Shown here: positions 772 through 9,676 of the stretch, one piece after another | How the letters are laid out: each line of letters opens with the position of its first letter | How positions within the stretch are numbered: position 1 is the stretch's first letter | Source of the DNA: a virus | DNA: 14,853 bases | Reading direction: 5' to 3' (one strand) | UHGV virus genome: UHGV-0073227 | The notes under the pieces: model-generated | What the model was told of the DNA's origin: nothing | Database searches by the model: none | The model's input: the letters and a program-made list of their open reading frames with translations, nothing else | Made by a program: the position numbers and the translations under genes

Positions 772-2058
772 TTACCCCACTTTCTTATGGGGCATACATG
801 GGACACTTTCAGATAGTCTTTTGTTAAGGAGTTCTATCTGTTCGTGATTGTTGTCTTTCATCCATGCTCCGTAAACATTGAATACCATTTGTGCGTTTGT
901 GTGGCCCATCTGGCTTGCGATAAAACTAGGATTAGCTCCAGCGGCAAGTGACCAGCATGCATAAGTATGCCTGGATTGGTACGATTTTCTGTGTCTCAGA
1001 CCTGCGCGTTTTAAGATACTTGTCCATGACTCCCTGATGGAGTCAACTTTGTAGTGAGGTCCAGACAACTGCTGCTGTTTTATTACCTGAGGGCTAAAAA
1101 CAAAAGTACATTTATGCACAGCAGTTCTCCCATATTCCCTCTGCTTTACCTCTACAGAATGTTGCTTTCCAAGCATGGTCATTTCCGCCTGGCTTTTAAG
1201 AGCATCAATAGCTGGTTGAACCAGATGAATTGTCCTTCCGGTGCCAGCATCGGTTTTTGGTGGAGTGAATTCGCCAAGTTTTGTATAATTTCTACGGATG
1301 GTTATAGTCCTTGCTTTAAGGTCTATATCTTCCCATGCCAGCGATACCAACTCCCCGTGACGAATACCCGTGTATACAGCGAGAATCCACAGGTTTTTTG
1401 TTTGTTGATGACGGCAAGCCTCAATAAAACGAATAAATTCGTCACGGGTGAGAGGATCTGGTTTTACCTTGGACTTTTTTAAGGGAGCCAGACCGTTAAA
1501 TGGGTTTCCTGAGGTATAACCATTATCTGTTGCAAATTGAAACATTCCAGCTATGGTTGTCATATAGTAGTTTACCGTGACCACTGAGCGCCCTTTTATG
1601 GAAGAAGTCTTTCCATTAGAAAGCTTTTGGTAACCGGTCAACAAATCTCTCCTTACGAAAAGTAAATCCTCTTTTGTTATGGATGAAACCAGTTTTTTTT
1701 CACCTAACATTGGTAACATGTTTTTAATTACTGACTGGTAACGGTTAAGTGCATTCGCACAAATCTCAATTTTCTTAAGGTCCAACCATTTTTCCGAAAG
1801 TGCCTTAACGGTTATCTCTCTTTTTCCCAGACCAAAGTGTTTCAGGTTAGGGGAATTAGGGAACTGCGCGGCGTAGTCGAAACTCCCCATTCTGATTGCA
1901 AAACAAACTGAAGTGCGAAGCTCACCAGCGATCTTCCGGTTTTTGGCGGTGTCAGGAACACCGAGGTTTTCTCTGACACGTTTGCCATTATAGTGAAACC
2001 ATATACGGAGTGATCCTCCATGGTTTTCAACGCCTGTCGGGTATGATGCGTTACTCAT
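772..2058 (-). CDS. int: Phage tyrosine integrase (site-specific recombinase)
   Basis: 428-aa ORF with a C-terminal catalytic region typical of tyrosine recombinases (GIRHGELVSLAWEDID ... HRKSYQSRHTYACWSLAAGANPSFIASQMGHTNAQMVFNVYGAW, carrying the R..H..R..Y residues). ATG at 2056-2058 is preceded by GGAGG. It sits next to the att junction. Confidence 0.95.
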   Translation of the reverse strand: MSNASYPTGVENHGGSLRIWFHYNGKRVRENLGVPDTAKNRKIAGELRTSVCFAIRMGSFDYAAQFPNSPNLKHFGLGKREITVKALSEKWLDLKKIEICANALNRYQSVIKNMLPMLGEKKLVSSITKEDLLFVRRDLLTGYQKLSNGKTSSIKGRSVVTVNYYMTTIAGMFQFATDNGYTSGNPFNGLAPLKKSKVKPDPLTRDEFIRFIEACRHQQTKNLWILAVYTGIRHGELVSLAWEDIDLKARTITIRRNYTKLGEFTPPKTDAGTGRTIHLVQPAIDALKSQAEMTMLGKQHSVEVKQREYGRTAVHKCTFVFSPQVIKQQQLSGPHYKVDSIRESWTSILKRAGLRHRKSYQSRHTYACWSLAAGANPSFIASQMGHTNAQMVFNVYGAWMKDNNHEQIELLNKRLSESVPCMPHKKVG

Positions 2059-2949: not shown

Positions 2950-3777
2950 TTATTTAATCTGGATAAATGGTGTATTGGCACCACTGGTCATGTATTGCGG
3001 CAGTGTACCGTTCCACTTGTTGATGGCTTCCAGCTCCATGACGCCAGGGTTCTGGCGCAGAGCTTCACCGCGTAAACGAATAGCATCGGCCTCGGCCTGG
3101 GCTTTTGTGCGAATCGCATCTGCCTGTCCGGCAGCTTCCGCGCGCAACATGTTAGCTTCCGCTTCGCGCTGTTTTACTTCCTGTTCGCGTTGCAGGGTTT
3201 TCTGGTTCGCCGTGACTTTGGCATTAATGCTGTCGATAACGGTTGGCGGGTACTCCGGCTTACCCACATATGAGAGACTCATTACCTGAATACCTATGGG
3301 CGTCATTTCTGCCTGAATGTCTTTAAGAGCTGCATCCAGTAGTTCAGACTTCCCGCCGTCGATAAATTTGTCAGTGGTCATTTTGCTGGCCAGTCGATTG
3401 AGTGCGTCGGCGATCTTCTGGCGCAGGTCAGTGTCGGTAATGTCATCCACGCCTTTGCGGTAGGTCTGAAACACCGTGGTAACTTTGGATGGATCAACTT
3501 TGTAGGCAACACCGATGTGATAGCCGATGGTTGTGCCGTCACTCATCTGGAAGCTGAACGGCTCATCGTAGGTCTTCATTTGTTTGAAGGTTGGGAAGAT
3601 GTAAACTTCAGTATTCCAGCCAGTCCAGTAGCGACCAACACCGACCACCTCACCGACGCCTTTATCGTCGCCCGGTTTATTTACTTTGATGCCAACATTA
3701 CCGGGTTCAACGCGATCGCAGCCGACAAGGCCAATGATCGGCAGAACAATGGCTAAAGCAAAAATAATTTTTTTCAT
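2950..3777 (-). CDS. SPFH/band-7 (HflK/HflC/QmcA-like) domain lipoprotein
   Basis: 275-aa ORF. The N-terminus MKKIIFALAIVLPIIGLVGC is a signal peptide ending in an LVGC lipobox. The body has SPFH-type motifs (NVGIKVNKPG, GIQVMSLSYVGKPEYPPTVIDSI) followed by the Ala/Glu/Arg-rich coiled tail (QREAEANMLRAEAAGQADAIRTKAQAEADAIRLRGEA) typical of HflC/HflK-like proteins. RBS AAGGA, 6 nt before the ATG at 3775-3777. Confidence 0.85.
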   Translation of the reverse strand: MKKIIFALAIVLPIIGLVGCDRVEPGNVGIKVNKPGDDKGVGEVVGVGRYWTGWNTEVYIFPTFKQMKTYDEPFSFQMSDGTTIGYHIGVAYKVDPSKVTTVFQTYRKGVDDITDTDLRQKIADALNRLASKMTTDKFIDGGKSELLDAALKDIQAEMTPIGIQVMSLSYVGKPEYPPTVIDSINAKVTANQKTLQREQEVKQREAEANMLRAEAAGQADAIRTKAQAEADAIRLRGEALRQNPGVMELEAINKWNGTLPQYMTSGANTPFIQIK

Positions 3778-4146: not shown

Positions 4147-4719
4147 TCACTGGCCTTCTGGCATACCATGAGTATTCAGGTCGTTAATCATTTCATCCAG
4201 AAGGAGTTCAAGCCCTTCTCGCCCCATGTCTGAAACAATGAAACCTTTATCTGGGTATGTAATGAGCATTTTCTGATAAAGAAACAGCGCTCTACCCATT
4301 CCTTCTGCCTTGCCGTATTTTTGAATTAAATTCCATTCAATATACTGCTGTAAGGCAAACCGAATGGGGCCGGGATATATCGTCATAACCCCATGCTTCC
4401 CGTTATATATTACGGCGCGATCTGTTGTTCCGTGTTCGTTTGGGATATCAATAGTGCCATTCTTGTTTTCTTCTTCGTTGATGAATGTCGTCACGTACAA
4501 CCAGCGCCACTGGGCTACCTTCATCTCAACAGGGAGTTTACCCAGTAATCCTGCATTGTCGGCTTGTGCGAGGCATTGAAGGATTTGCAAACCTTTCACA
4601 TTAGGATGATCGAATTCACCTGCATCCAGACGGCGGATTGCGTCGTGATAATCAATAGTCATACTGCCAGTTCGTATACCTGTGGCTGTTGCTTCAGCCT
4701 GGAATTCAGCGTATTGCAT
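4147..4719 (-). CDS. Hypothetical protein (190 aa), no recognisable family
   Basis: ORF with an AGGAG RBS 8 nt upstream of the ATG at 4717-4719; the RBS lies inside the end of the upstream 60-aa ORF, whose stop is 5 nt before this ATG (tight coupling). The local sequence looks AT-richer than the flanking phage core. Confidence 0.8.
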   Translation of the reverse strand: MQYAEFQAEATATGIRTGSMTIDYHDAIRRLDAGEFDHPNVKGLQILQCLAQADNAGLLGKLPVEMKVAQWRWLYVTTFINEEENKNGTIDIPNEHGTTDRAVIYNGKHGVMTIYPGPIRFALQQYIEWNLIQKYGKAEGMGRALFLYQKMLITYPDKGFIVSDMGREGLELLLDEMINDLNTHGMPEGQ

Positions 4720-4909: not shown

Positions 4910-5023
4910 TTATCTCCCATATGCTTTACGCAGAAACAAGCAGGCAATATGCATGTAATTTTTCCCGTGCTGTGCAATAAGGCAGGCTGTTTTGTGTGAT
5001 GCCTTATGTTTTATAAAGGTCAT
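4910..5023 (-). CDS. Candidate 37-aa basic leader peptide (MTFIKHKASHKTACLIAQHGKNYMHIACLFLRKAYGR)
   Basis: Not in the ORF track (too short). ATG at 5021-5023 with a strong GGAGG RBS 7 nt upstream; its TAA stop (4910-4912) lies 2 nt before the ATG of the 60-aa gene. Confidence 0.3.
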   Translation of the reverse strand: MTFIKHKASHKTACLIAQHGKNYMHIACLFLRKAYGR

Positions 5024-5104
5024 ATAAAACCTCCTGTGGATTAAGGGTGTGATAATCCCCGGCGATTAAGCCGTAATATATTATCCGGAGATGACTTGTT
5101 CTAT

Positions 5105-5305
5105 TTAACTGGTTAGTTCTTTTTCAGCAGCTGCTTCAGCATAGCAACGTGCAAATTCAAGAACTTCATCACCTGTTCTTTTTATTGCGTCGTTGTCTGA
5201 CATTTGTAATACAACAACTGCGCATAATAAATTATGGATATTGTTTGCAAAGGAATCCGGTGCCAGGCATAAGCCTTCATACTTATCATGGATATTGCCA
5301 GTCAT
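5105..5305 (-). CDS. Hypothetical small protein (66 aa)
   Basis: Internal ATG of the 80-aa track ORF with an AAGGAG RBS; the RBS sits immediately before the stop codon of the upstream tandem-HTH gene (5311-5313), with 5 nt from that stop to this ATG. Confidence 0.6.
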   Translation of the reverse strand: MTGNIHDKYEGLCLAPDSFANNIHNLLCAVVVLQMSDNDAIKRTGDEVLEFARCYAEAAAEKELTS

Positions 5306-5310
5306 TGTTG

Positions 5311-5982
5311 TTACTCCTTTGCTTCTGATTTGCCTGTTAACAACCACATCAGGTCACAATTAAGAGCACTGGCCAGTGGTACTATCTGATCAGCAGGAAC
5401 TTCACAGATGCCGCATTCCCAGTCGTTTATGGGGTCGCTATAGGTATTAATCATGCGGGCAAGATCAGCTTCCGTTAAGCCCAGTTTTTTACGTGCGCTT
5501 TTGATGCGTGCGCCAATACTTTCCACGTAGACTTCAGGCGCATTTACGCGAATAACAGACGCGCTATCTTTTTCATCCAGCAAAGAAAGCGGATCGCACC
5601 CAATGACGTTTGCCAGGGGGATAAGCATGCTGATGGTCGGTTCGAACTCTCCGCTCTCCCATTGCAGGATGATCTCTTCATCGAGATCAAGCAGTTTGGC
5701 AAGTTCGGTGGTCGTCAAGCCGCAGGCTTCACGTTGGGCACGGATTTTTCCAAAAAAGTGACCATGCGAAACCATAGCTTTTGCCTCACATAGTTTTTCT
5801 GCAAAAATTGATGCAGTTTCTTCTGTTTTTTGCAGGGAACGCATCAGGCATCTGATTGCATTATAAACCCTCTCACTTTCTGCTCCGTTTTCTGACATGT
5901 AGGAATAGATCATTCCAAGCAGCGAGCCGCTTTCTTGTATTTGTGCTGCAATTTCATCCATCACCTTAACTGCATGCTTCAT
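5311..5982 (-). CDS. Tandem helix-turn-helix (two XRE-type HTH domains) DNA-binding protein with an N-terminal helical domain
   Basis: ORF 5311..6018; the track's first codon is TTG, while the ATG at 5980-5982 has a perfect AGGAGG RBS. Two HTH_XRE-like segments (GKIRAQREACGLTTTELAKLLDLDEEIILQWESGE and GARIKSARKKLGLTEADLARMINTYSDPINDWECG). First gene downstream of the PL-like promoter. Confidence 0.8.
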   Translation of the reverse strand: MKHAVKVMDEIAAQIQESGSLLGMIYSYMSENGAESERVYNAIRCLMRSLQKTEETASIFAEKLCEAKAMVSHGHFFGKIRAQREACGLTTTELAKLLDLDEEIILQWESGEFEPTISMLIPLANVIGCDPLSLLDEKDSASVIRVNAPEVYVESIGARIKSARKKLGLTEADLARMINTYSDPINDWECGICEVPADQIVPLASALNCDLMWLLTGKSEAKE

Positions 5983-6007
5983 ATGAGCCTCCTGTTGTTT
6001 TAATTTT

Positions 6008-6047
6008 ACAATAGCCAAAGCGTTTGGTTATGTCAATCGCTATAGCT
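6008..6047 (-). promoter_or_regulatory. PL-like leftward promoter with overlapping operator
   Basis: On the minus strand: -35 TTGACA (plus 6031-6036), 17-bp spacer, -10 TATTGT (plus 6008-6013), about 20 nt upstream of the RBS and ATG at 5982. The 13-mer TCAATCGCTATAG (6033-6045) overlaps the -35 and recurs in the cI-cro intergenic region. A palindrome CCAAA-GCG-TTTGG (6015-6027) lies in the spacer. Confidence 0.5.
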
Positions 6048-6124
6048 ATGCATTTTGGGCAGCAAAGAACAGATTATGAGAGAAATGAGACGATACGTAG
6101 GGAGTTGAGATACAGGAAAGTAGA

Positions 6125-6145
6125 GCAGCTGCGCAATACAGCTGC
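6125..6145 (-). terminator. Stem-loop GCAGCTG-CGCAATA-CAGCTGC downstream of the cI stop; candidate cI terminator
   Basis: 7-bp perfect stem with a 7-nt loop, 14 nt past the cI stop. The minus-strand continuation UCUACUUUCCU is only moderately U-rich. Confidence 0.35.
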
Positions 6146-6158
6146 CGGTGATGTTGAC

Positions 6159-6863
6159 TTATCCGACCCTGTTATACTGGATTGACTGATGAATGAGAAC
6201 TTTCCCCATTATGAATAGATGTTCTTCAGCTGATTCACTTATAAACCATTCCTTGTAGGCCGGATTGTCTGATATAACAGCAAGTTGCATCCCTTGCATT
6301 TGCAGGCGTTTGATATGGAAGGTGTGCCCAAAAATAAAAATATAGATACCGTCAGTTTCAAAATTTCTGACGGATACGTCGACAAACACCTGATCTCCTG
6401 CACACAGAGTAGGAGCCATGCTGTCGCCATCAACTGTTATCATCTTTATGATATTTGCTGGCCTGCTACAGAACAGACGTCTTGCGGCGTCATGTGAAAA
6501 TTCTATAGCATGGACCGTTTCTGCAAAATCTGAAACAAGGAATGTTCCTGGTCCCGCGCTGGCAGCGATATCCAGGACTTCCACACGAAAAATATCCTTA
6601 TCATTTTCCAGCGGGGAATATGATTCCTGTGGTGTCGGATTGCAGGATGTGCTTTCTTCTGGGGTCATAGGACCAACACCGTACGATAGCCACTCGGGGC
6701 GCACGTTCAGGGTATTGGCTATCTCCACAACTTTCCTGGAGCCTGTGGCACCATTAACCAGTTTATTTACGCTCGATTGAGCCATGCCAACCTCTCTGGC
6801 CAGTTTTCCCTGCGAGTATCCGCGGATAGTCATAGCTAACTGTAGCCTGTCTGAAAAGCTCAT
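6159..6863 (-). CDS. Phage repressor, cI-like (N-terminal HTH_XRE plus C-terminal S24/LexA-type autopeptidase)
   Basis: ATG at 6861-6863 with an AAGGAGG RBS. N-terminal HTH (YSQGKLAREVGMAQSSVNKLVNG). C-terminal S24 motifs: an Ala-Gly site (AASAGPG), the Ser nucleophile in VDGDSMAPT, and Lys in HIKRL. Divergent from the Cro-like gene. Confidence 0.9.
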   Translation of the reverse strand: MSFSDRLQLAMTIRGYSQGKLAREVGMAQSSVNKLVNGATGSRKVVEIANTLNVRPEWLSYGVGPMTPEESTSCNPTPQESYSPLENDKDIFRVEVLDIAASAGPGTFLVSDFAETVHAIEFSHDAARRLFCSRPANIIKMITVDGDSMAPTLCAGDQVFVDVSVRNFETDGIYIFIFGHTFHIKRLQMQGMQLAVISDNPAYKEWFISESAEEHLFIMGKVLIHQSIQYNRVG

Positions 6864-6986
6864 AAGTCCTCCTTTTTCTGCCCTTTTAGTGTATCGCCTT
6901 AGCGATATATACACAAACCGCTTTTCCGTACATTGCAATCGCTTTAATCAATCGCTATAGTGAATGAAATCAGGTTGGAGGTCGAT
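6864..6986. promoter_or_regulatory. Immunity-switch intergenic region (OR-like operators with divergent PRM/PR promoters)
   Basis: Perfect palindrome TATCGC-CTTA-GCGATA (6892-6907). Two direct CAATCGCT repeats (6936-6943 and 6949-6956). Candidate PR: -35 TTGCAA (6933-6938), 16-bp spacer, -10 TATAGT (6955-6960), both overlapped by the repeats. The 13-mer TCAATCGCTATAG (6948-6960) is shared with the PL region. Confidence 0.6.
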
Positions 6987-7250
6987 ATGAAAAATGAAGG
7001 TATAGCCAAGGCTGTAGATATTGCGGGAAGCCAGATTGCTCTGGCTAGGCGTTGTGGTCGCGCGCAGTCAACAATTTGCGACTGGCTGAATGGGAAGAAA
7101 AAAATTTCTCCTGAATTTGTTCCGTCTCTGGTTAAGGCGGTCGATGGGAAAGTCCAGGCGTATGAATTTCGTCCTGATCTACCGGAGCTTTTCCCACACC
7201 CAAGTTTAGCGCACACAGAAGATGGAGTGTGCGAAGGAGATAAACAGTGA
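6987..7250 (+). CDS. Cro-like / YdaS-family small HTH regulator
   Basis: ATG at 6987 with a GGAGG RBS 5 nt upstream. The HTH segment (GSQIALARRCGRAQSTICDWLNG) resembles the YdaS/Cro family. Divergent from cI; its stop overlaps the next gene's GTG. Confidence 0.8.
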   Translation: MKNEGIAKAVDIAGSQIALARRCGRAQSTICDWLNGKKKISPEFVPSLVKAVDGKVQAYEFRPDLPELFPHPSLAHTEDGVCEGDKQ

Positions 7251-8006: not shown

Positions 8007-8831
8007 GTGAAAAACAATATCAAAGTTTTCGATTTTAAATCAAGCACTGGTGAATTGTTGTCATCAGTTCGTAGTGTGGTCATTGATTCAACACCATGGT
8101 TTTTTGCCGTGGATATATGTAACGCGCTGGGGCTGACAAATACTGCTATCTCCCTTCAGTCCATCGATGATGAAGATAAAACCGAATATAAGGATTACTT
8201 AGGTTCGGGACGTAAGCCTTTGCTGGTCAATGAATCCGGGCTCTATGCGCTGATTATCAAAAGTCGAAAAAAACAGGCAAGACGTTTTAAACGGTGGATT
8301 ACATCGGAGGTAATTCCGTCAATTCGTAAAACGGGGAATTACAGTCTTACCACAATGACATCCCTACCAGATTTTAGCGATCCGGCTGCTGCTGCCCGTG
8401 CCTGGGCGGATGAATATGAGGCTAAAAACAGAGCAATTAGTTACGTTCATCGTCAGGCCCAATACATCGAACATCTGGAAAATTTATTCCAGCCTGGCAT
8501 GACACCGGTTCAGTTCTGCAAGCAACTTAATGGAGTAAATGTTCAGCGTATCACAGCATTTCTGGAGGCTCACAACTGGCTTTATGACGAGCGTCCTGAA
8601 TCGCGAAGCCCCGCATGGCGTGTAAAGGCATATGCCCGAGATCTGTATCTGACCGAACGTCACCACTATATCGATTCAGGTTATGAAGAAGGGTTTTATT
8701 CGTATACACCAGTTCTTCTCCAGAAAGGGGCGGTCTGGATTTATCGCCAGTATCTTAGAGGTGCATTACCCATGAAGAGAAACTGGAATGGCGAATTCAC
8801 CCACGATAAAGAACTGGCGGGTGCTGCATGA
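8007..8831 (+). CDS. Phage antirepressor with an N-terminal Bro-N domain and a C-terminal KilA-C/ANT-like region
   Basis: GTG at 8007 is the first in-frame start after the upstream stop, with a GGAGA RBS 6 nt upstream. Bro-N-like motif: VVIDSTPWFFAVDICNALGLTNTAISLQSIDDEDK ... ESGLYALIIKSRKKQARRFKRWITSEVIPSIRKTG. Confidence 0.8.
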   Translation: MKNNIKVFDFKSSTGELLSSVRSVVIDSTPWFFAVDICNALGLTNTAISLQSIDDEDKTEYKDYLGSGRKPLLVNESGLYALIIKSRKKQARRFKRWITSEVIPSIRKTGNYSLTTMTSLPDFSDPAAAARAWADEYEAKNRAISYVHRQAQYIEHLENLFQPGMTPVQFCKQLNGVNVQRITAFLEAHNWLYDERPESRSPAWRVKAYARDLYLTERHHYIDSGYEEGFYSYTPVLLQKGAVWIYRQYLRGALPMKRNWNGEFTHDKELAGAA

Positions 8832-9124
8832 TTGTTCTCCAAAATATTGATTCCTCAATTTCGGGACGTTACACTGTTCTGGCACCTTATAAAGCGGGTG
8901 CCGGGGGTCGCAGCCCGGAATTGCATACGGCGATATACGACGCGCCAGCGTCTTTTTTATCGTCCGCGCTCACGCACGCCAGAATTATGGTGGGCTGGGC
9001 AGGGGAGCCGAAAGGCTCGCCGGTTTCCGTATGCGCCGGTACTGCGAACCCTGTTCAGTCTGCCACCAGTGAGTTTCGCAGCTCCGGTGGTGGAAGTTAT
9101 CCATTGCATACGGAGGCTGCCATC

Positions 9125-9676
9125 ATGGCTACGATCCCAACCCTCACTCAACCTGAAATTGCCATCGTTGATGGTCAGGCTGTTACTTCATCCCTGGCTG
9201 TTGCCAACTTCTTCTCCAAACGTCATGACGATGTACTGAAAAAGATCCGCACGCTTGAATGTTCCGCATCATTCACTGCCCGCAATTTTTCGGTGAGTGA
9301 TTACACCGATTGCACAGGCCGCAAACTACATTGCTATCAAATAACCCGCGACGGCTTTGCGTTTCTTGCTATGGGTTTCACGGGTAAACGTGCTGCCCAG
9401 TTCAAAGAGGCATACATAAATGCCTTTAACCAGATGGAGAAGAGTTTATCAGGTGCCGATGCGTCTGATATGTCAGCTGTCGCACGAAACGCCAGAGGCG
9501 TATACCTGCATTTGCGTGAAATCCATCAAATCTGGACAAGCCAGCTTTATCCAATGCTTAAGGCTGTTGAATCTCCGCTGGCCAGCAAACTGTACGACCG
9601 TGTAGGTGATGCTGTTTTTGGTGCTGCACTTGTTGATTCCAGGCTGAATGGTTCTGACAAGGAGGTGCGTCCATGA
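9125..9676 (+). CDS. Second Rha-family phage regulatory protein / antirepressor-like
   Basis: ATG at 9125 with a GGAGG RBS (9112-9116). Rha-like N-terminus: AIVDGQAVTSSLAVANFFSKRHDDVLKKIRTL. The open frame also extends upstream to an ATG at 8828 that overlaps the Bro-N stop, so a 282-aa N-extended form is not excluded. Confidence 0.75.
   Translation: MATIPTLTQPEIAIVDGQAVTSSLAVANFFSKRHDDVLKKIRTLECSASFTARNFSVSDYTDCTGRKLHCYQITRDGFAFLAMGFTGKRAAQFKEAYINAFNQMEKSLSGADASDMSAVARNARGVYLHLREIHQIWTSQLYPMLKAVESPLASKLYDRVGDAVFGAALVDSRLNGSDKEVRP

Follow-up and report, generated by a model that had tools for sequence, protein, structure and literature searches.

The 14,853-nucleotide stretch of virus genome UHGV-0073227 analysed here (the window) shares 98% identity with a lambdoid prophage that is inserted beside yecE/yecN in E. 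coli, and its early-left operon opens with two minus-strand genes, encoding a 223-residue regulator with two XRE-type helix-turn-helix (HTH) domains and a 66-residue partner protein. The partner belongs to the same domain family as the N-terminal two-helix hairpins of related regulators, and the pair recurs at this position in nearly all related prophages that we compared. From sequence comparison and structure models we tentatively propose that the two genes may form a conserved early regulatory module of lambdoid prophages of Escherichia, Salmonella and Citrobacter that lack the antiterminator N, a module in which the free hairpin would modulate the regulator. This reading is one possibility among several, and the evidence for it and for its competitors is set out below.

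Architecture of the regulator and its partner

The regulator open reading frame (ORF; 5311-5982, minus strand, 223 residues) is preceded by an AGGAGG ribosome-binding site (RBS) at 5993-5988, 5 nt ahead of its ATG. Its TAA stop (5313-5311) is separated by a gap of 5 nt from the ATG at 5305 of the partner gene (5105-5305, minus strand, 66 residues), and the RBS of the latter, AAGGAG, lies directly at the regulator stop, which indicates translational coupling. In the Pfam scan, which took in selected products of the window, HTH_3 (PF01381) is matched by two stretches of the regulator, residues 80-131 and approximately 157-220, at 59.3 bits against a cutoff of 23. The AlphaFold2 model (predicted local distance difference test, pLDDT, 74) places a two-helix hairpin (helices 2-32 and 37-70) ahead of HTH1 (75-134) and HTH2 (156-216). 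ORF, Pfam match and model therefore bear out the initial annotation, in which the first gene of the pL transcript had been described as a 223-residue protein with two XRE HTHs and an N-terminal helical domain, followed after 5 nt by a 66-residue ORF whose RBS sits just ahead of the upstream stop. The parts of the two genes are as follows.

5761-5982, minus strand: regulator codons 1-74, N-terminal helical hairpin of type A (AlphaFold2), specific to the immunity cassette
5578-5760, minus strand: regulator HTH1, residues 75-135, XRE/HTH_3, net charge -6, isoelectric point (pI) 4.35
5524-5577, minus strand: inter-domain linker, residues 136-153, disordered (pLDDT below 50 at residues 136-152)
5311-5523, minus strand: regulator HTH2, residues 154-223 and stop, nearest solved structures the DNA-binding domains of 434 repressor and P22 c2
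5314-5319, minus strand: partner RBS AAGGAG, abutting the regulator stop

The regulator is a member of the XRE/HTH_3 superfamily. In Foldseek searches its HTHs match P22 c2 and 434 repressor/Cro with a target-normalised template-modelling score (TM-score) of 0.8-0.93, a root-mean-square deviation of 0.8-2.0 and 31-41% identity, and the likeness to 434 repressor and P22 c2 is also seen by sequence (E 1.5e-6); the best solved sequence match of HTH1 is an MBF-like protein. The whole protein matches PHROGs 4739 (E 1.8e-52) and 4836 (E 7.5e-52), and in NCBIfam and PADLOC it gave only generic-HTH matches, each below the family cutoff. The partner protein falls in phrog_4587 (E 5.8e-36) and has no match in Pfam, NCBIfam or PADLOC. 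All three PHROGs are families without tested function, and no study of these proteins emerged from our literature searches.

The 66-residue protein is acidic and soluble, and its gene is under purifying selection, the ratio of nonsynonymous to synonymous substitution rates (dN/dS) being 0.08-0.27. Like the type-A hairpin of the regulator it is predicted to fold as a hairpin, in this case helix-loop-helix with a core pLDDT above 90, for which a Foldseek search of the PDB returned nothing significant, only generic helical hairpins. Besides its own PHROG it matches phrog_4836, a profile built from regulators, at profile positions 24-69 in the N-terminal part, and this match led to its homology with the N-terminal domain of the regulator family. 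With the N-terminus of type-B regulators it shares 48-50% identity across 44 residues (E 6e-9), and hhalign aligns the small-protein profile with a profile of the type B-E N-termini at a probability of 96.9% (E 2e-10). An ungapped alignment of 11 sequences displays the common pattern F-x-G-L ... N-I-x-x-L-x-x-A ... Y-A. Judged by these alignments the 66-residue protein is free-standing and paralogous to the N-terminal domain that type B-E regulators carry. The initial annotation missed this homology, and with it the place of the N-terminal domain in the immunity cassette.

Conservation of the gene pair and the hairpin family

The comparative set comprised 80 viral contigs and the window (81 loci). 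At every one of the 81 a cI-like gene is followed on the same strand, 68-176 nt downstream, by the regulator as the first gene, and the same is found in Salmonella. A free hairpin gene of the 66-, 63- or 121-residue type lies downstream of the regulator on the same strand in 80 of the 81 loci, its start ranging from a few-nucleotide overlap to approximately 300 nt past the regulator stop. The regulators carry either one HTH (139-172 residues) or two (213-243 residues), with three in a Salmonella form; the single-HTH form is HTH1 fused to the tail of HTH2. Among E. coli prophages at least five N-terminal domains of unrelated appearance are found on the conserved tandem-HTH body.

Salmonella loci have two to four free hairpin genes in a row. 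At two of them, L147 (4738-5927) and L148 (4001-5831), a regulator with two or three HTHs is followed by an array of hairpin-family genes that encodes a 185-residue protein that begins with a hairpin and, as judged by eye, has another at its C-terminus, together with hairpin-like proteins of 66, 68, 69 and 132 residues, the 68-residue protein confirmed by profile search and the others recognised by eye.

An exhaustive HMMER search with the free-hairpin profile against 1.84 billion representative proteins (E <= 0.001) returned 64 clusters, mostly short free-standing proteins of approximately 30-121 residues, some of them with extra N-terminal sequence of no known family. Among the longer matches, all ten that were checked consist of an N-terminal hairpin followed only by XRE HTHs, one to three in number. 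On this sequence evidence the hairpin is an undescribed domain with two contexts, free or fused ahead of XRE HTHs. Where the source of a match is named it is Escherichia, Salmonella or Citrobacter only. Of 5426 complete E. coli genomes, 97 carry the tandem form, in up to two copies, and it occurs also in Shiga toxin (Stx) converting phages of the Stx1a, Stx2a and Stx2d types. A search of species-representative genome contigs with the regulator alignment found only generic XRE proteins from unrelated phyla and no true relative.

The hairpin as part of the immunity cassette

The N-terminal hairpin type and the cI allele correspond one-to-one over ten hairpin types, including three cI alleles that are 88-93% identical, and the linkage holds in Salmonella, where a cI of 66% identity accompanies a hairpin of type A. 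DNA homology between the window and all other types starts sharply at regulator nucleotides 245-247 (window approximately 5736-5738, the first HTH1 codons) and resumes on the right at the cro/Rha junction, at approximately 7233; both mosaic boundaries recur against ten other immunity types. Sequence comparison thus delimits an exchangeable cassette of hairpin, left operator and promoter (OL/pL), cI, right operator and promoter (OR/pR) and cro, roughly 5738-7233, whose left edge cuts the regulator gene at the junction between hairpin and HTH1. Synonymous divergence (dS) of the hairpin is 1.6, against 1.55 for cI and 0.39 for the HTH segment, and its dN/dS of 0.24-0.28 is about seven-fold above that of cI (0.03-0.04). 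Positive selection on the hairpin was considered and is not shown by these values, dN/dS being below 1 and dS saturated.

We read the linkage of hairpin and cI as explained by position, as there is no homologous DNA between them in which recombination could take place, and by itself it is no proof of a functional coupling between the two. It does raise an alternative to our proposal, one that we consider unlikely, in which the pair would be an immunity-specific switch: the hairpin would recognise not itself but the cognate cI or Cro, the regulator would be an early anti-repressor or commitment factor, and the free hairpins would be decoys or be aimed at the repressors of other prophages. The one-to-one correspondence, kept even between closely similar cI alleles and in Salmonella, agrees with such a switch, as do cassette boundaries that enclose exactly hairpin, OL, cI, OR and cro, and small proteins that inactivate cI without proteolysis are known in other phages (PMC10432266). 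However, physical linkage alone suffices for the correspondence, given that the hairpin is as diverged at synonymous sites as cI is. Fused HTHs would moreover be needless for an anti-repressor, the S24 autocleavage domain of cI and the presence of a Cro-like protein mean that an extra one is not required, and the 66-residue protein is near-identical beside three different cI types.

Operators and expression of the pair

The elements that bear on transcription of the two genes are these.

6036-6008, minus strand: pL, TTGACA-17-TATTGT, 10/12 consensus matches (sigma-70 promoter scan)
6036-6049, unstranded: OL operator ATCGCTATAGCTAT, one mismatch to the palindrome described below, holding most of the 13-mer and lying over the pL -35
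6011-6024, unstranded: possible weak second OL site ATAGCCAAAGCGTT, four mismatches by eye, over the pL -10
6124-6146, minus strand: hairpin with a 9-bp stem right after the cI stop, -15 kcal/mol, z-score -2.6, U-poor tail
6159-6863, minus strand: cI-type repressor, 234 residues, HTH_3 and Peptidase_S24 (Pfam)
6893-6964, unstranded: OR region, with operators at 6893-6906 and 6951-6964, a half-site at 6938-6951 and pR at 6933-6961
6933-6961, plus strand: pR, TTGCAA-17-TATAGT (sigma-70 promoter scan)
6987-7250, plus strand: Cro-like protein of the YdaS family, 87 residues (Pfam)

The leftward pL, a strong promoter, and pR are the two best-placed sigma-70 matches. The initial annotation had noted that the pL-like promoter is overlapped by a 13-mer found also at OR, and this 13-mer, TCAATCGCTATAG, indeed has exact copies only at 6033-6045 and 6948-6960, the first lying across the pL -35 and the second across the pR -10. 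A 14-bp palindrome common to both promoters, ATCGCTATAGCGAT, includes it. Allowing up to three mismatches the palindrome has five matches, against 0.44 expected and with none of 200 shuffles reaching five, and three of the five are at OL/OR (6036-6049, 6893-6906 and 6951-6964). One copy lies over the pR -10, one just 5' of the cI RBS, where the promoter for repressor maintenance (pRM) is expected, and one over the pL -35, which is the classical cI/Cro arrangement. The site at 6011-6024, below the three-mismatch limit of the scan, is by its sequence a possible second OL site. Elsewhere, an operator-like 14-mer, GTCGCTATAGGTAT, occurs at 5434-5447 in the HTH2 coding region, approximately 600 bp from OL, with three mismatches to the palindrome and 12/13 identity to the OL copy; it is probably there by chance, and could be a distal operator.

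This layout makes repression of the gene pair by cI a safe inference, in keeping with the repression in the lysogen that had been suggested before, and cI almost certainly represses both the regulator and the 66-residue gene; Cro probably controls them as well. As the only promoter recognised for the pair bears the cI operator, lysogens should not express the two genes, and their products should appear immediately upon induction or infection. The hairpin at 6124-6146 is a weak terminator candidate between pRM transcripts and the pL operon, and some pRM read-through into the regulator operon in lysogens is therefore possible. No intrinsic terminator was found on the minus strand between 4000 and 6000, the scanned part of the pL operon.

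Autoregulation through the 13-mer had been put forward in the initial annotation as an alternative to cI control, and the tandem-HTH protein as a second repressor acting on the cI operators. Neither idea is supported by the comparison between immunity types: prophages of at least nine other immunity types have an HTH segment that is 80-97% identical as DNA, with nearly identical recognition helices, whereas the OL/pL regions of ten types are unrelated and each has its own repeats. The same HTH DNA standing beside unrelated OL/pL regions argues that the HTHs do not read the 13-mer or the cI operators.

The head of the pL operon holds a regulator-type protein and a small partner in the position of lambda N, as had been proposed. 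The regulator shares with N its place as first gene of a cI-repressed leftward early operon, and in some lambdoid phages the N gene belongs to the exchangeable immunity region. It is, however, not an arginine-rich RNA-binding antiterminator, again as first described: it is acidic (pI 4.76 overall), begins with a hairpin and continues with HTHs. By our own reading of the sequence the pL transcript starts at approximately 6001, and a leader of only about 19 nt leaves no room for a nutL site; an Rfam scan found no nut- or put-like RNA and no RNA element near pL.

A proposed mechanism

As the first pL transcription unit under a cI/Cro operator, the pair should be expressed immediate-early. Gene 1 is modular, a fast-evolving hairpin that moves with the cassette being joined to one to three XRE HTHs common to immunity types, and gene 2 encodes a free member of the hairpin domain family. 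Isolated two-helix hairpins of approximately 60 residues, such as Rop and the hooks of SinR/SinI, normally pair as four-helix bundles, and from this we infer that the N-terminal hairpin may be an oligomerisation or partner-binding module. The occurrence of two hairpin classes without detectable similarity (type A versus types B-E) at the same position fits a generic role of this kind. The regulator would act through its HTHs on a target common to these phages, one other than the cI operators, and the free hairpin would modulate it by hairpin-hairpin association, timing or limiting its activity early after derepression. The same logic operates where SinI antagonises SinR and where Id proteins poison basic helix-loop-helix factors.

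Several observations weigh against this mechanism and limit our confidence in it. BLASTP of the 66-residue protein against the regulator of the window gave nothing, and hhalign of the type-A hairpin against the small-protein family or the other N-terminal types gave probabilities of 0.2-0.3%; with no homology detectable between the type-A hairpin and the 66-residue protein, like-with-like pairing is unproven at this locus. Nor does the free-hairpin type co-vary with the N-terminal type, each free type occurring with four to seven N-terminal types, which argues against a specific cognate pair. The HTHs of the E. coli protein are unusually acidic, HTH1 with a pI of 4.35 (net -6) and HTH2 with a pI of 4.82 (net -3), and the 434-repressor contact positions Q28/Q29/S30/Q33 are S/D/P/D in HTH2 and, in our own hand alignment on the W-E-x-G motif, E/E/I/Q in HTH1, so that from sequence canonical DNA binding appears uncertain. 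Finally, a search across related loci for a conserved candidate operator of the regulator found none.

Two candidates were set aside in that search. The dyads TTTGCA-N8-TGCAAA and TAAATG-N5-CATTTA are conserved, yet they are coding sequence of the hairpin genes. Of the motif CCGTAATATATTA, which lies at 5071-5083 and again near 4400, only one half is conserved, and that only in loci of the 66-residue type. Two copies of the AT-rich near-palindrome CCGT(T/A)ATATATTA(C)GG lie 671 bp from each other, at 4400-4416 within a 190-residue gene and at 5070-5088 in the gap 3' of the 66-residue gene; a single half is conserved in relatives.

Somewhat less likely than the immunity-specific switch is that the HTHs have lost DNA binding altogether, the regulator serving as an early adaptor to host or phage proteins with fused and free hairpins as its interaction modules. 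XRE-type HTHs are used for protein contacts in RodZ and MBF1, and the acidic E. coli HTHs with their replaced contact residues, the MBF-like best match of HTH1 and the lack of a recognisable operator would all suit an adaptor. Against this, the Salmonella orthologue P0098 has basic HTH domains (pI 9.2-9.9), the fold is the canonical one of repressor DNA-binding domains, HTH2 keeps its basic first helix (RIKSARKK), and two to three HTH copies are typical of DNA-site extension.

We rank below this, as improbable, a pair resembling CII and CIII, in which the regulator would activate the repressor-establishment and integrase promoters and the small protein would be a decoy substrate for proteolysis. 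PHROG 4836 is labelled 'CII-like regulator' and one phage record reads 'putative CII repressor', but these labels are annotation transfer and not experiment. No N, cII or cIII homologue was recognised among the scanned products or in the annotation of the near-identical prophage, which as regards cII and cIII agrees with such a pair, and a free copy of the regulator's own N-terminal domain would make a plausible decoy. However, neither protein matches a CII or CIII family in a full Pfam scan (E <= 0.1), the search for an activator site near cI or int yielded no candidate, and the gene is in the pL operon, not the pR operon.

It is very improbable that the pair is a toxin-antitoxin module, or the two-gene exclusion module that the initial annotation had also entertained, with the HTH protein as antitoxin or regulator and the 66-residue protein as effector: XRE HTH proteins are common antitoxins, there are weak sub-threshold NCBIfam/PADLOC matches to HTH antitoxin or regulator families and the module sits in a variable slot beside cI, but all such matches are generic HTH, no toxin or defence family is matched by the 66-residue protein, a soluble and acidic hairpin akin to the domain of the regulator family, the promoter with its cI operator would be silent in the lysogen, where exclusion must act, and the first-gene position is fixed over all immunity types, unlike that of a movable accessory gene.

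Comparison with known systems

Under the proposed modulation of the regulator by a free hairpin, the pair would work most like SinR/SinI, although it fails to resemble it by sequence and domain order. SinR/SinI and SlrR/SlrA of Bacillus subtilis likewise combine an XRE HTH regulator bearing a two-helix domain with an adjacent small protein that consists of two helices only; SinI is homologous to the two-helix domain of SinR, with which it heterodimerises, inactivating SinR. For the Sin system, 1b0n and 3qq6 are among the Foldseek fold matches. Sequence homology is limited to the generic HTH, and by sequence neither protein is a member of the SinR/SinI families. The hairpin of the prophage protein is N-terminal, whereas the Sin domain is C-terminal; its HTH is duplicated; and the small gene is downstream, translationally coupled and in the pL operon. 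Furthermore the type-A hairpin of the window is not detectably homologous to its own partner, and their association is putative.

Each HTH has the five-helix fold of the DNA-binding domains of 434 repressor and P22 c2, but the regulator has no S24 or C-terminal dimerisation domain, carries two HTHs per chain and, in the E. coli allele, has acidic residues in place of the base-contact residues. Wmk of the Wolbachia prophage WO is another prophage protein with two XRE HTHs, and its NCBIfam family NF047948 is matched at 41 bits, far below the 300-bit cutoff; Wmk has no homology to the N-terminal hairpin, and its host and context are unrelated.

Silpe et al. (2023, PMC10432266) describe modules of a transcription factor and a small open reading frame (TF-smORF), in which an XRE-type factor of the phage and an adjacent small protein of no known family feed the lysis-lysogeny switch. 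There the genes are divergent and the transcription factor activates the small gene, whose product inactivates cI and shows no relation to that factor; the phages are linear and plasmid-like (PMC10432266). In the prophage pair, by contrast, both genes point the same way with 5 nt between them and share one cI-repressed promoter, and their small protein is paralogous to a domain of the transcription factor family. A survey of Stx phage regulatory regions (PMC8951638) reports an atypical 'Clade VIII CI' that has two HTH_3 domains but lacks a peptidase, and that may be the tandem-HTH regulator rather than a repressor.

Other features of the window

The remaining early-left genes lie, as xis does, on the minus strand with the integrase gene.

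772-2058, minus strand: int

At 2950-3777 (minus strand) and in neighbouring genes, the early-left operon includes, by the annotation of the near-identical prophage, an SPFH-domain protein and a DUF5406 protein. Between the 66-residue gene and a 60-residue gene is a basic ORF of 37 residues, MTFIKHKASHKTACLIAQHGKNYMHIACLFLRKAYGR (4910-5023, minus strand), with an AGGAGG RBS and a stop 2 nt ahead of the next ATG, which is listed as "hypothetical" in Stx phage records. On the plus strand the YdaS-type Cro is followed by Rha/BRO/Ash-type genes, replication genes and Q. Rfam places isrK at 8882-8958 (57 bits) and a C4 antisense RNA at 8983-9070 (80 bits) on this strand, both within the 5' part of a 282-residue 'Rha family' ORF (8828-9676), the start of which may be mis-called. 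The region looks like the c4-ant antirepressor control of the P1/P7 immI type, here on the pR side.

Implications for lambdoid prophages

The analysis defines a hairpin domain family, a gene pair that almost always heads the early-left operon and a cassette edge that falls at a domain junction, and it amends the view that the cI operators are read by the tandem-HTH protein. Among the related prophages, which are without lambda N, are Shiga-toxin converting phages from E. coli O145 and strains akin to it. A bolder extension, which we regard as quite improbable, is that the hairpin would join cI, Cro and the operators as a fourth determinant of specificity in the lambdoid immunity cassette, one that acts at protein level, with free hairpins acting in trans as dominant-negatives or decoys also on the regulators with near-identical HTHs, or on the repressors, of co-resident heteroimmune prophages. 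If true, it would amount to hairpin-based cross-talk or warfare between prophages in polylysogenic Shiga toxin-producing E. coli, driving the rapid divergence of the N-terminal hairpins. An antagonism like that of SinI and SinR offers a concrete and cheap hypothesis for the immediate-early step of induction, which ultimately controls toxin release.

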